DNA from: a virus | Lineage: Duplodnaviria > Heunggongvirae > Uroviricota > Caudoviricetes | Length of the DNA: 19,900 nucleotides | Virus record (IMG/VR): IMGVR_UViG_2734482551_000002 | Strand: one strand, 5' to 3' | Shown: piece by piece, positions 1,894 to 19,900 of the stretch | Numbering within the stretch: position 1 is the stretch's first letter | Layout of the letters: each line of letters opens with the position of its first letter | Notes under the pieces: generated by a model | The model's database searches: none | Told to the model about the DNA's origin: nothing | What the model saw: the letters and a program-made list of their open reading frames with translations, nothing else | Program-made: the position numbers and the translations under genes

Positions 1894-5574
<3,681 letters not shown>

Positions 5575-5594
<20 letters not shown>

Positions 5595-6930
5595 TCTCCC
5601 GCATATTGCCAGCATGGCTTTTAATGAGCCGCTGATGCTTGAACCCGCCTATGCGCGGGTTTTCTTTTGTGCGCTTGCAGGCCAGCTTGGGATCAGCTGC
5701 CTGACGGATGCAGTATCCGGCGACAGCCTGACTGCCGGAGAGGCACCCGCGGCGCTGGCGTTATCCGGTGATGATGACGGACCACGACAGGCCCGCAGTT
5801 ATCAGGTAATGAACGGCATCGCCGTGCTGCCGGTGTCCGGCACGCTGGTCAGCCGGACGCGGGCGCTGCAGCCGTACTCGGGGATGACCGGTTACAACGG
5901 CATTATCGCCCGTCTGCAACAGGCTGCCAGCGACCCGATGGTGGACGGCATTCTGCTCGATATGGACACACCGGGCGGAATGGTGGCGGGAGCATTTGAC
6001 TGCGCTGACATCATCGCCCGTGTGCGTGACATAAAGCCGGTATGGGCGCTGGCCAATGACATGAACTGCAGCGCAGGTCAGCTGCTTGCCAGTGCCGCCT
6101 CCCGGCGTCTGGTCACGCAGACCGCCCGGACAGGCTCCATCGGCGTCATGATGGCTCACAGTAATTACGGCGCTGCACTGGAGAAACAGGGCGTGGAAAT
6201 CACGCTGATTTACAGCGGCAGCCATAAGGTGGATGGCAACCCCTACAGCCATCTACCGGATGATGTCCGGGAAACATTGCAGTCCCGGATGGATGCAACC
6301 CGCCGGATGTTTGCACAGAAGGTGTCGGCATATACCGGCCTGTCCGTGCAGGCTGTGCTGGATACCGAGGCTGCAGTGTACAGCGGTCAGGAGGCCATTG
6401 ATGCCGGACTGGCTGATGAACTTGTTAACAGTACCGATGCGNNNNNNNNNNNNNNNNNNNNNNNNNNNNNNNNNNNNNNNNNNNNNNNNNNNNNNNNNNN
6501 NNNNNNNNNNNNNNNNNNNNNNNNNNNNNNNNNNNNNNNNNNNNNNNNNNNNNNNNNNNNNNNNNNNNNNNNNNNNNNNNNNNNNNNNNNNNNNNNNNNN
6601 NNNNNNNNNNNNNNNNNNNNNNNNNNNNNNNNNNNNNNNNNNNNNNNNNNNNNNNNNNNNNNNNNNNNNNNNNNNNNNNNNNNNNNNNNNNNNNNNNNNN
6701 NNNNNNNNNNNNNNNNNNCTCACGGACGCGAAGAACAGGCACGCGTGCTGGCCGAAACCCCCGGTATGACCGTGGAAACGGCCCGCCGTATTCTGGCCGC
6801 AGCACCACAGAGTGCACAGACGCGCAGTGACACTGCGCTGGATCGTCTGATGCAGGGGGCACCGGCACCGCTGGCTGCAGGTAACCCGGCATCTGATGCC
6901 GTTAACGATTTGCTGAACACACCAGTGTAA
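5575..6930 (+). CDS. C: Prohead protease / minor capsid protein C (S49-type), interrupted by a masked N block at 6442-6718
   Basis: Starts at GTG 5575, overlapping the B 3' end as in lambda. The product VTAELRNLPHIASMAFNEPLMLEPAYARVFFCALAGQLGIS... matches lambda gpC. The frame continues through the N run and resumes with HGREEQARVLAETPGMTVETARRILAAAPQSAQTRSDTALDRLMQGAPAPLAAGNPASDAVNDLLNTPV, the lambda C/Nu3 C-terminus. The gene is about 36 nt longer than I remember lambda C to be, if the N-run length is real. Confidence 0.9.
6289..6930 (+). CDS. nu3: Scaffolding protein Nu3 (in-frame internal start within C), partly masked
   Basis: In-frame ATG at 6289 (MDATRRMFAQKVSAYTGLSVQAVLDTEAAVYSGQEAIDAGLADELVNSTDA...) at the position equivalent to lambda nu3, sharing the C stop. 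The central part is hidden by the N block. Confidence 0.8.
   Translation: MDATRRMFAQKVSAYTGLSVQAVLDTEAAVYSGQEAIDAGLADELVNSTDAXXXXXXXXXXXXXXXXXXXXXXXXXXXXXXXXXXXXXXXXXXXXXXXXXXXXXXXXXXXXXXXXXXXXXXXXXXXXXXXXXXXXXXXXXXXXXHGREEQARVLAETPGMTVETARRILAAAPQSAQTRSDTALDRLMQGAPAPLAAGNPASDAVNDLLNTPV
6442..6718. other. Masked block (277 N) inside C/nu3
   Basis: Continuous run of N. Flanking sequence is in frame with C on both sides. Confidence 0.99.
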
Positions 6931-14296: not shown

Positions 14297-14622
14297 AAAC
14301 CTTCCGCTGGAAAGTGAAACCCGGTATGGATGTGGCTTCGGCCCCTTCTGTAAGAAAGGTGCGCTTTGGTGATGGCTATTCCCAGCGAGCGCCTGCCGGG
14401 CTGAATGCCAACCTGAAAACGTACAGCGTGACGCTTTCTGTCCCCCGTGAGGAGGCCATGGTACTGGAGTCGTTTCTGGAAGAGCACGGGGGCTGGAAAG
14501 CCTTTCTGTGGACGCCGCCTTATGAGTGGCGGCAGATAAAGGTGACCTGCGCAAAATGGTCGTCGCGGGTCAGTATGCTGCGTGTTGAGTTCAGCGCAGA
14601 GTTTGAACAGGTGGTGAACTGA
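14293..14622 (+). CDS. M: Tail tip protein M
   Basis: 109-aa ORF MKTFRWKVKPGMDVASAPSVRKVRFGDGYSQRAPAGLNANLKTYSVTLSVPREEAMVLESFLEEHGGWKAFLWTPPYEWRQIKVTCAKWSSRVSMLRVEFSAEFEQVVN matching lambda gpM. ATGA overlap with the H stop. Confidence 0.96.
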   Translation: MKTFRWKVKPGMDVASAPSVRKVRFGDGYSQRAPAGLNANLKTYSVTLSVPREEAMVLESFLEEHGGWKAFLWTPPYEWRQIKVTCAKWSSRVSMLRVEFSAEFEQVVN

Positions 14623-15207
14623 TGCAGGATATCCGGCAGGAAACACTGAATGAATGCACCCGTGCGGAGCAGTCGGCCAGCGTGGTGCTCTGGGAAATCG
14701 ATCTGACAGAGGTCGGTGGAGAACGTTATTTTTTCTGTAATGAGCAGAACGAAAAAGGTGAGCCGGTCACCTGGCAGGGGCGACAGTATCAGCCGTATCC
14801 CATTCAGGGGAGTGGTTTTGAACTGAATGGCAAAGGCACCAGTACGCGCCCCACGCTGATGGTTTCTAACCTGTACGGTATGGTCACCGGGATGGCGGAA
14901 GATCTACAGAGTCTGGTCGGCGGAACGGTGGTCCGGCGTAAGGTTTACGCCCGTTTTCTGGATGCGGTGAACTTCGTCAACGGAAACAGTGACGCCGATC
15001 CGGAGCAGGAGGTGATCAGCCGCTGGCGCATTGAGCAGTGCAGCGAACTGAGCGCGGTGAGTGCCTCTTTTGTACTGTCCACGCCGACGGAAACAGATGG
15101 CGCTGTTTTTCCGGGACGTATCATGCTGGCCAACACCTGCACCTGGACCTATCGCGGCGATGAGTGCGGTTATCACGGTCCGGCGGTCGCGGATGAATAT
15201 GACCAGC
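14622..15207 (+). CDS. L: Tail tip protein L (visible 5' portion only; 3' end lies in the masked block)
   Basis: Starts at ATG 14622, overlapping the M stop (TGATG). The product MQDIRQETLNECTRAEQSASVVLWEIDLTEVGGERYFFCNEQNEKGEPVTWQGRQYQPYPIQGSGFELNGKGTSTRPTLMVSNLYGMVTGMAED...CTWTYRGDECGYHGPAVADEYDQ matches lambda gpL up to the N run at 15208. The expected end, about 115 nt further on, is masked. Confidence 0.9.
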
Positions 15208-15501
15208 NNNNNNNNNNNNNNNNNNNNNNNNNNNNNNNNNNNNNNNNNNNNNNNNNNNNNNNNNNNNNNNNNNNNNNNNNNNNNNNNNNNNNNNNNNNNN
15301 NNNNNNNNNNNNNNNNNNNNNNNNNNNNNNNNNNNNNNNNNNNNNNNNNNNNNNNNNNNNNNNNNNNNNNNNNNNNNNNNNNNNNNNNNNNNNNNNNNNN
15401 NNNNNNNNNNNNNNNNNNNNNNNNNNNNNNNNNNNNNNNNNNNNNNNNNNNNNNNNNNNNNNNNNNNNNNNNNNNNNNNNNNNNNNNNNNNNNNNNNNNN
15501 N
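15208..15501. other. Masked block (294 N) covering the L 3' end, the L-K junction and the region upstream of the annotated K start
   Basis: Continuous run of N. L is open on entry and the K frame is open on exit. Confidence 0.99.
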
Positions 15502-15519
15502 CCGGAGGCGTATTTCCGT

Positions 15520-16119
15520 ATGTCGCCGGAAGACTGGCTGCAGGCAGAGATGCAGGGTGAGATTGTGGCACTGGTCCACAGCCACCCCGGTGGTCTGCCC
15601 TGGCTGAGTGAGGCCGACCGGCGGCTGCAGGTGCAGAGTGATTTGCCGTGGTGGCTGGTCTGCCGGGGGGCGATTCACAAGTTCCGCTGTGTGCCACATC
15701 TTACCGGGCGGCGCTTTGAGCACGGGGTGACGGACTGTTACACGCTGTTCCGGGATGCTTACCATCTGGCGGGGATTGAGATGCCGGATTTTCATCGTGA
15801 GGATGACTGGTGGCGTCACGGTCAGAATCTCTATCTGGATAATCTGGAGGCCACAGGGCTGTATCAGGTGCCGTTGTCAGCGGCGCAGCCGGGCGATGTG
15901 CTGCTGTGCTGTTTTGGTTCATCGGTGCCGAATCATGCCGCCATTTACTGTGGTGACGGCGAGCTGCTGCACCATATTCCTGAACAACTGAGTAAACGAG
16001 AGAGGTACACCGACAAATGGCAGCGACGCACACACTCCCTCTGGCGTCACCGGGCATGGCACGCATCTGCCTTTACGGGGATTTGCAACGATTTGGCCGC
16101 CGCATCGACCTTCGTGTGA
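15520..16119 (+). CDS. K: Tail tip assembly protein K (JAMM/MPN motif plus NlpC/P60-like Cys-His region)
   Basis: 199-aa product from ATG 15520 (MSPEDWLQAEMQGEIVALVHSHPGGLPWLSEADRRLQVQSDLPWWLVCRG...DCYTLFRDAYHLAG...HAAIYCGDGELLHHIPEQ...AASTFV) matching lambda gpK. It contains the HSHPGG-x-S-x2-D JAMM-type motif. The frame is open upstream (PEAYFR, 15502-15519) back to the N block. Confidence 0.92.
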   Translation: MSPEDWLQAEMQGEIVALVHSHPGGLPWLSEADRRLQVQSDLPWWLVCRGAIHKFRCVPHLTGRRFEHGVTDCYTLFRDAYHLAGIEMPDFHREDDWWRHGQNLYLDNLEATGLYQVPLSAAQPGDVLLCCFGSSVPNHAAIYCGDGELLHHIPEQLSKRERYTDKWQRRTHSLWRHRAWHASAFTGICNDLAAASTFV

Positions 16120-16748: not shown

Positions 16749-19700
16749 ATGGGTAAAGGCAGCAGTAAGGGGCATACCCCGCGCGAAGCGAAGGACAACC
16801 TGAAGTCCACGCAGCTGCTGAGTGTGATCGATGCCATCAGCGAAGGGCCGGTTGAAGGTCCGGTGGATGGATTAAAAAGCGTGCTGCTGAACAGTACGCC
16901 GGTGCTGGACAATGAGGGGAATACCAACATCTCCGGCGTCACGGTGGTGTTCCGGGCAGGTGAGCAGGAGCAGTCACCGCCGGAGGGGTTTGAATCCTCC
17001 GGCTCCGAGACGGTGCTGGGTACGGAAGTGAAATATGACACGCCGATCACCCGGACCATCACGTCGGCAAACATTGACCGACTGCGTTTTACCTTCGGTG
17101 TACAGGCACTGGTGGAAACCACCTCAAAGGGAGACAGGAATCCGTCTGAAGTTCGCCTGCTGGTTCAGATACAGCGTAACGGTGGCTGGGTGACGGAAAA
17201 AGACATCACCATTAAGGGCAAAACCACCTCGCAGTATCTGGCCTCGGTGGTGGTGGATAACCTGCCGCCGCGCCCGTTTAATATCCGGATGCGCAGAATG
17301 ACGCCGGACAGCACCACAGACCAGCTGCAGAACAAAACGCTCTGGTCGTCATACACCGAAATCATCGATGTGAAACAGTGCTACCCGAACACGGCACTGG
17401 TCGGCGTACAGGTGGATTCGGAGCAGTTCGGCAGCCAGCAGGTGAGCCGTAATTATCATCTTCGCGGGCGCATTCTGCAGGTGCCGTCGAACTATAATCC
17501 GCAGACGCGGCAATACAGCGGTATCTGGGACGGAACGTTAAAACCGGCATACAGCAACAACATGGCCTGGTGTCTGTGGGATATGCTGACCCATCCGCGC
17601 TATGGCATGGGGAAACGTCTTGGTGCGGCAGATGTGGATAAATGGGCGCTGTATGTCATCGGCCAGTACTGTGACCAGTCGGTGCCGGACGGCTTTGGCA
17701 GCACGGAGCCGCGCATCACCTGTAATGCCTGGCTGACCACACAGCGCAAGGCGTGGGATGTGCTCAGTGATTTCTGCTCGGCGATGCGCTGTATGCCGGT
17801 ATGGAACGGGCAGACGCTGACGTTCGTGCAGGACCGACAGTCGGATAAGGTGTGGGCCTATAACCGCAGTAATGTGGTGATGCCGGATGATGGCGCGCCG
17901 TTCCGCTACAGTTTCAGCGCCCTGAAAGACCGCCATAATGCCGTTGAGGTGAACTGGATTGACCCGGATAACGGCTGGGAGACGGCGACAGAGCTTGTGG
18001 AGGATACGCAGGCCATTGTCCGTTACGGTCGTAACGTCACGAAGATGGATGCCTTTGGCTGTACCAGCCGGGGGCAGGCACACCGCGCCGGGCTGTGGCT
18101 GATTAAAACGGAACTGCTGGAGACGCAGACCGTGGATTTCAGCGTGGGTGCTGAAGGGCTTCGTCATGTACCGGGCGATGTCATTGAAATCTGCGATGAT
18201 GACTATGCCGGTATCCGCACCGGCGGGCGCGTGCTGGCGGTGAACAGCCAGACCCGGACGCTGACGCTCGACCGTGAAATCACGCTGCCATCCTCCGGCA
18301 CCACGCTGATAAGCCTGGTTGACGGGCAGGGGAATCCGGTCAGCGTGGAGGTCCAGTCCGTCACCGACGGCGTGAAGGTAAAAGTGAGCCGTGTTCCTGA
18401 CGGTGTTGCTGAATACAGCGTGTGGGGGCTGAAGCTGCCGACGCTGCACCAGCGATTGTTCCGCTGCGTGAGTATCCGTGAGAACGACGACGGCACGTAT
18501 GCCATCACCGCCGTGCAGCATGTGCCGGAAAAAGAAGCCATCGTGGATAACGGGGCGCACTTTGACGGCGACCAGAGCGGCACGGTGAATGGTGTCACGC
18601 CGCCAGCGGTGCAGCACCTGACTGCCGAAGTCACCGCAGACAGCGGGGAATATCAGGTGCTGGCGCGCTGGGACACGCCGAAGGTGGTGAAGGGGGTGAG
18701 CTTTATGCTTCGCCTGACCGTGGCAGCGGATGACGGCAGTGAGCGGCTGGTCAGCACGGCCCGGACGACGGAAACCACATACCGCTTCACGCAACTGGCG
18801 CTGGGACGGTACACGCTGACAGTCCGGGCGGTAAATGCCTGGGGACAGCAGGGCGATCCGGCGTCGGTATCGTTCAGGATTGCCGCACCGGTAGCACCGT
18901 CGCGGATTGAGCTGACGCCGGGCTATTTTCAGATAACTGCCACGCCGCATCTTGCGGTTTATGATCCGACGGTACAGTTTGAGTTCTGGTTCTCGGAAAC
19001 GCGGATTACCGATATCAGGCAGGTTGAAACCACAGCCCGCTACCTTGGCGCGGGGCTGTACTGGATAGCCGCCAGTATCAATATCAAACCGGGCCATGAT
19101 TATTACTTTTATATCCGCAGTGTGAACACCGTTGGCAAATCGGCATTCGTGGAGGCCGTCGGTCGGGCGAGCGATGATGCGGAAGGTTACCTGGATTTTT
19201 TCAAAGGCAAGATAACCGAATCCCATCTCGGTAAAGAGCTGCTGGAAAAAGTTGATCTGACGGAGGATAACGCCAGCAGACTGGATGAGTTTTCGAAAGA
19301 GTGGAAGGACGCTAACGATAAATGGAATGCGATGTGGGGCGTCAAAATTGAGCAGACCAAAGACGGCAAACATTATGTCGCGGGTATTGGCCTCAGCATG
19401 GAGGACACGGAGGAAGGCAAGCTGAGCCAGTTTCTGGTTGCCGCCAATCGTATCGCGTTTATTGACCCGGCAAACGGGAATGAAACGCCGATGTTTGTGG
19501 CGCAGGGCAACCAGATATTCATGAATGACGTGTTCCTGAAGCGCCTGACAGCCCCCGCCATTACCAGCGGTGGCAGTCCTCCGGTATTTTCCCTGACATC
19601 AGACGGAAAGCTGACCGCTAAAAATGCGGATATCAGTGGTAGTGTGAATGCGAACTCAGGAACGCTCAACAATGTCACGATTAACCAGAACTGTACGATT

Positions 19701-19900
19701 AAGGGCATGCTGGAGGCGACCCAGGTCAGAGGGGATTTCGTTAAAGCTGTATCAAAAGCCTTCCCGAAAAAAGTCGGTACGTGGGGTAACACGGAAACAC
19801 CAGACGGTACGGTTACAGTCACCATCAGCGATGATCATAACTTTGACCGCCAGATTATTATTCCGCCCATTATTTTTAACGGTATAGCGTATGACGATCC
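16749..19900 (+). CDS. J: Central tail fiber / host specificity protein J (5' 1050 codons; continues beyond window end)
   Basis: ATG at 16749 ([85 protein letters not shown]...). I read the frame codon by codon from 17991 to 19900 and spot-checked it at 17340; no stop was found. It is absent from the ORF track only because it has no stop inside the window. Near-identical to lambda J until about codon 975, then divergent. Confidence 0.93.

Follow-up and report, generated by a model that had tools for sequence, protein, structure and literature searches.

A 434-type (h434) receptor-binding allele on the J protein of a lambda-like prophage, with OmpC as its predicted receptor

The gene for host-specificity protein J in a 19,900-nt stretch of viral DNA (IMG/VR record IMGVR_UViG_2734482551_000002; the whole stretch is hereafter called the window) leaves the lambda sequence just upstream of its receptor-binding domain (RBD), and the non-lambda sequence that follows is, base for base, that of the classical allele of phage 434 (h434), which is already known and not new. 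We hold it to be very probable that the distal module is the 434 (“h434”) RBD allele set on a lambda-family J, with adsorption most likely through OmpC and no need for LamB. The finding is real but ordinary, and its weight as a discovery is small; the practical value lies in annotation, where this J can be labeled “434-type, predicted OmpC-dependent.”

Gene J and its departure from lambda

An open frame of 1050 codons runs along the plus strand from 16749 to 19900 and meets no stop before the window end. The open frame, its Pfam content and its place in the operon identify it as J (the tip attachment, central tail fiber or host-specificity protein), of which the first 1050 of 1137 inferred codons are present; J has a length of 1137 aa in phage 434, in mEp460_ev081 and in E. 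coli X14-3. The translated product scores above the cut-offs for FNIII-A_GpJ, Phage-tail_3, Ig_J, Ig_J_second, Phage_Tail_Tip and Ig_GpJ_C, and the order and positions of these six families are as in 434 J. Upstream lie reading frames for H (853 aa), M (109 aa), L and K (interrupted by a run of N) and I (223 aa), and the order H-M-L-K-I followed by J is the same in lambda, 434 and the window. Downstream of J, the genomes of 434, mEp460_ev081 and the X14-3 prophage carry lom, a side tail fiber gene (stf) and an assembly chaperone (tfa). Over its full length the window is 96–97% identical to lambda and lambda-like phages, and the J region (16749–19900) is free of N runs and frame problems. The feature is gene J of a lambda-like prophage, about 87 codons short at the window end.

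The earlier note had described a J that stays close to lambda up to about codon 975 and is non-lambda from there on, with the switch near 19670, and comparison with the lambda reference (NC_001416; protein NP_040600.1, P03749) bears this out, as the two proteins agree at 934/974 residues (95.9%) over positions 1–974 and at 37/76 (48.7%) over positions 975–1050. The first departing residue in the diverged block is N974 (S974 in lambda), encoded at 19668–19670, and the peptide strings that had been quoted from each of the two proteins are found in them letter for letter. At the DNA level, identity to lambda J in 150-nt bins is 90–98% through 19598, falls to 76.7% at 19599–19748 and reaches 51.3% at 19749–19896. 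A single mismatch is present in 19602–19657, and mismatches become dense from 19658; with megablast on the whole window, the lambda match stops at 19716, whereas 434-type phages match through 19900. A LamB-binding RBD of lambda type would carry high identity to residues ~975–1132 of lambda J, and the in-window part shows 48.7% in protein and 51–77% in DNA. Sequencing error or a frameshift was considered as the source of the divergence and rejected, since the frame is open and the segment equals that of 434 base for base.

These values divide the gene into a lambda-like body (16749..19657, plus strand), comprising the hub, the FNIII and Ig domains and the central straight fiber and lying at 90–98% nucleotide identity to both lambda and 434 per 150-nt bin, and a transition zone (19658..19682, plus strand; codons ~970–978) in which the lambda-type and 434-type sequences part. 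The zone lies between Phage_Tail_Tip, which covers aa 846–972 and ends at nt 19664, and Ig_GpJ_C (“C-terminal receptor binding domain”), which begins at aa 1001 and of which aa 1001–1046 (nt 19749–19886) align to profile positions 1–47 of 135. The switch point thus placed is a module boundary just upstream of the RBD.

The 434-type allele and its frequency

Residues 975–1050 are identical to those of phage 434 J at 76/76 positions (100%), and the DNA of 19641–19900 shows 0 mismatches to 434 (260/260 nt). Because J upstream of this segment diverges from 434 by 4.7% in DNA, the clean 260-nt match is more than chance would provide, with a probability of 0 mismatches in 260 nt of ~3.6e-6. The segment itself (19668..19900, plus strand; 0 nt mismatches and 76/76 aa to 434) comprises the linker and the first third of the C-terminal Ig-like RBD, and identity to 434 J from aa ~974 holds over all of the module that lies in the window. 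Over the last 900 nt of the window, identity is 97.2% to phage 434, 97.1% to lambda h434 imm21 and 99.2% to mEp460_ev081; the lambda h434 imm21 record (OM418627), with its 97.1% to window positions 19000–19900, is 99.6% identical to the 434 RBD segment.

The 434-type RBD is readily related to its lambda counterpart, with E values of 1.5e-70 to 3.3e-71 against the lambda gpJ chains of the PDB over the last 237 aa and of 7e-25 for full-length 434 J against Ig_GpJ_C, and it is a homologous but old alternative cassette to the lambda RBD. The GC content was compared at window positions 19668–19900, L002:5668-6162 and L004:4425-4904. It is 46–48% in the 434-type RBD module (46.4% at window 19668–19900), against 54% in the lambda RBD and 57.7% elsewhere in J, and the low GC of the 434-type cassette suggests a different evolutionary origin.

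Among complete E. coli genomes, 2091 of 5426 carry the 493-nt 434-type RBD segment at ≥80% coverage, while the lambda RBD segment is found in 96 of the same 5426; the 434-type RBD is therefore ~20 times more frequent than the LamB-type RBD of lambda. The lambda RBD genomes among the matches listed (n = 5) are four DE3-type derivatives and one K-12 strain, all of them laboratory strains. The 434-type matches fall into two bands of DNA identity to 434, with 1211 records at 95–99% and 887 at 90–95%, and 74 phage records contain the same RBD, among them many Stx1a-, Stx2a- and Stx2c-converting phages, a cdtI phage, mEp460 and several PhiR phages. A scan of species-representative genomes found it in two Escherichia genomes and one contig of a Collinsella metagenome-assembled genome (MAG), and in no others. 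That contig (JAGZNZ010000056.1, 1350 nt; handle L013) bears a 434-type J C-terminus at 93% identity and is presumably a mis-binned Escherichia prophage fragment. E. coli prophages commonly carry the “non-lambda” 434-type C-terminus and rarely that of lambda, whose LamB-binding tip is the exception of the two.

Distal exchange within J on a widespread backbone

Relative to its nearest backbone relatives, the window J contains a second and younger recombination junction, at 18700..18850 (plus strand), upstream of which it is 100% identical to the L005/L009/L011 lineage and downstream of which it is of the mEp460_ev081 and X14-3 type. Sliding identity of L005, L009 and L011 to the window is 99–100% up to 18698, then 89%, and then 39–66% at ~19150–19514; from ~18850 the window follows mEp460_ev081 and X14-3 at 97–100%. 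Backbone contigs retrieved by exact gpH and gpI look-ups (CP104423.1, CP023645.1 and others) are 99.99–100% identical to the window from 1699 to ~18700, a value computed without the two N runs. The prophage with this backbone is very widespread, and its exact gpH occurs in 6744 indexed blocks of the collection. None of the complete E. coli genomes exceeds 97.3% identity over the whole window, and the exact 180-nt window-specific pattern (19421–19600) has no match in genome, viral or metagenome contigs.

The J of the backbone relatives is 1165 aa long, which excludes them as the source of the window; it has 28 extra residues in the central fiber (the mismatch zone at ~19150–19514), and its RBD, also of 434 type, departs slightly from that of the window, at six positions in the head. 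This lineage has recently replaced the distal 1.2 kb of J, exchanging one 434-type RBD for another, which is ordinary lambdoid mosaicism. A swap confined to the distal 1.2 kb (minus 28 fiber residues, with six changes in the RBD head) could also be seen as leaving a near-isogenic pair in which an exchanged cassette has shifted the host range very recently, if the 87 residues past the window differ or if the changes retune recognition of OmpC variants, but this seems to us very unlikely.

Two runs of N occupy 6442–6718 (277 bases, within the C/Nu3 gene) and 15208–15501 (294 bases, across the L/K junction), and are masked stretches or assembly gaps. They produce spurious long reading frames (14622–15560, 15061–16119 and 5440–6930), and the over-long “L” and “K” frames arise because of the 294-base run; the 0–8% identity to 434 at 15208–15500 was likewise rejected as real divergence, being this same run of 294 N. 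At the left end, the cosN cohesive end (1159–1170) reads GGGCGGAAGGCG and lies in a context that is otherwise conserved; phage PhiR49_1 has GGGCGGCGACCT there, a difference at 6/12 bases. The 12-mer of the lambda cosN does not occur in the window, also when one mismatch is tolerated. The exact window variant with its flanks recurs in 14 IMG/VR viral contigs (L016–L029), and because of this recurrence it is a natural allele. Upstream of cos and Nu1, two minus-strand reading frames (258–683 and 726–959) match DUF1398 and DUF3950, and the PhiR49_1 counterpart gene is noted as “hypothetical protein YbcV.” No megablast match to lambda-like phages covers the window's first 89 nt.

Receptor use and relation to known systems

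Protein Ib (OmpC) is said to have been identified as the 434 receptor by Hantke in 1978. Reviews place host specificity in the C-terminus of J (PMC3509688, PMC11101478) and state that when lambda J is replaced by the 434 gene the phage binds OmpC, the receptor of 434 itself (PMC3509688, citing Fuerst and Bingham, 1978), in place of LamB (also PMC11101478). The h434 host-range allele has been sequenced (OM418627; PMC9119081). Because the in-window module is identical to this characterized allele, OmpC adsorption is predicted, and the identity to 434 together with the literature makes OmpC the receptor most likely used. The inference in the earlier note that the outer-membrane receptor differs from that of lambda is supported on this basis, with 76/76 residues shared with 434 J and OmpC use by 434 J reported in the reviews. 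What it took for a mosaic C-terminus is no new mosaic; it is the classical, named 434 allele and the majority type in E. coli prophages.

Since the window covers the RBD up to codon 1050, with a further 87 codons, or roughly two thirds of the Ig-like domain, lying beyond 19900, the relatives that share this head are informative about the tail. Ten were compared (434, mEp460_ev081, X14-3, L005, L006, L007, L009, L011, L012 and L013), and in 10/10 the 87–88 residues past the window are 434-type with only 3–4 variable positions. In the window J, a tail of this type would read PGSGNNPGGTRYTGYGFEVRKNG...KKAASGISIR or a close variant, in the pattern PGSGNNPGGTRYTGYGFEVRKNGVLIASRETKGAIPGSYSAVIDMPSG[GR]GSVTLEFK[VI]F[HQ]KGNQ[RG]AGNITDCTVIVTKKAASGISIR. 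E. coli records that match the 493-nt 434 RBD segment do so at ≥80% coverage in 2094/2115 cases and partially in 21/2115. From the ten relatives and a share of partial matches of ≤ ~1%, we infer a complete 434-type RBD. A high identity to lambda's LamB-binding domain once the gene is read to its end, which the earlier note had set against its own reading, is very unlikely to emerge, with 48.7% in the window and 29% to lambda in the tails of all ten relatives.

An alternative is that the 434-type head in the window joins a tail of another type past 19900, giving a hybrid RBD of new or altered receptor specificity. Such a domain would be compatible with profile positions 1–47 of 135 alone falling in the window, with the mosaic junction that this J carries at ~18700–18850 and with the 21 partial matches among 2115 E. 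coli records; against it stand the 434-type tails of all ten relatives, the low share of partial matches (the one shown, H100, consists of the conserved first 76 nt alone) and the complete 434-type RBD in mEp460_ev081 and X14-3, which come nearest to the window in its final 1 kb at 99–100%, so that we regard a hybrid as extremely unlikely. It could also be argued that 434-type and lambda-type domains are equivalent variants of one specificity and that the diverged C-terminus still binds LamB, given that the two are homologous (~38% identity, one Pfam family) and that a few point mutations can shift lambda-family J among LamB, OmpC and OmpF (PMC11336670). The reported OmpC binding of lambda with the 434 J gene, to whose product the window segment is identical, makes this extremely unlikely.

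An alternative of another kind, compatible with the 434 identity of the allele, is that the prophage is defective or cryptic and that its J has no current role in adsorption. The difference of 6/12 bases between the cosN of the window and that of lambda, the two late-operon stretches given as N and the position of the remainder of the prophage outside the window would each fit such a state, but the late genes from Nu1 to J, wherever they can be read, all have open frames about as long as in lambda, the cosN variant shared by 14 viral contigs is a natural allele rather than decay, and the backbone is 99.99–100% identical to a very widespread prophage. We consider a defective prophage unlikely and infer a functional one.

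The preferred reading is that of a 434-type RBD directed to OmpC. As a trimer, J makes up the tail tip and the central fiber, and its C-terminal Ig-like domain contacts an outer-membrane porin, namely LamB for lambda and OmpC for 434 and the lambda h434 hybrids; this contact sets off the opening of the tail and the ejection of DNA. According to structural work on lambda, the Ig-like RBD enters the porin with its bottom loops, and as the RBD trimer opens, the change is passed up the fiber and opens the tail (PMC11101478). For a phage released by this prophage, irreversible adsorption would most likely proceed via OmpC, with no need for LamB. The lambda and 434 cassettes are swapped by recombination in the conserved fiber sequence just upstream, at the domain boundary. 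OmpC is polymorphic and natural gpJ C-termini discriminate between its variants (PMC11338833), so the label “OmpC” leaves the host range unfixed; the side tail fiber genes, downstream of J and beyond the window, are a second host-range determinant.

In comparison to known systems, phage 434 J (UMO75286.1, OL657226.1) and the h434 allele (OM418627.1) share the gene, its position and its domain architecture with the window J, and the body upstream of the module is 97.0% identical in protein to that of 434. The window is not phage 434 itself, because the upstream J body differs by ~4.7% in DNA. In the distal 1 kb the window J is closest to the J of mEp460_ev081 (LR597641.1) and the gpJ of X14-3 (WP_254825386.1), at 97–100% in nucleotides from 18849, although both are 2–8% different from the window in the proximal part of J and, at residue 1014, carry N rather than the D of the window and 434. 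Lambda J shares the Pfam domains and the operon order, and its RBD belongs to the same Ig-like family (Ig_GpJ_C), but it is ~38% identical to the 434-type RBD overall and 29% beyond the window, with small indels, and its receptor is LamB rather than the OmpC of 434-type J.

That J C-termini are exchanged as modules, and that lambda and 434 differ in receptor, is covered in reviews and has already been put to use in the engineering of phage particles. In work by Brödel et al. (2024), natural gpJ C-termini joined at lambda aa 964 gave OmpC-dependent particles (PMC11338833). The engineered lambda gpJ chimeras A8 and 1A2, in which an alternative natural C-terminus on a lambda body at ~aa 964 directs the particle to OmpC, follow the same principle as the window J, whose breakpoint (aa ~970–978), between Phage_Tail_Tip and Ig_GpJ_C, lies at the same modular boundary. 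The RBD of A8 gpJ (PDB 9wca/9wcb, “A8 gpJ 713”) is a different allele, 44.3% identical to the 434-type RBD, which separates the window module from an OmpC-binding RBD of A8 type.
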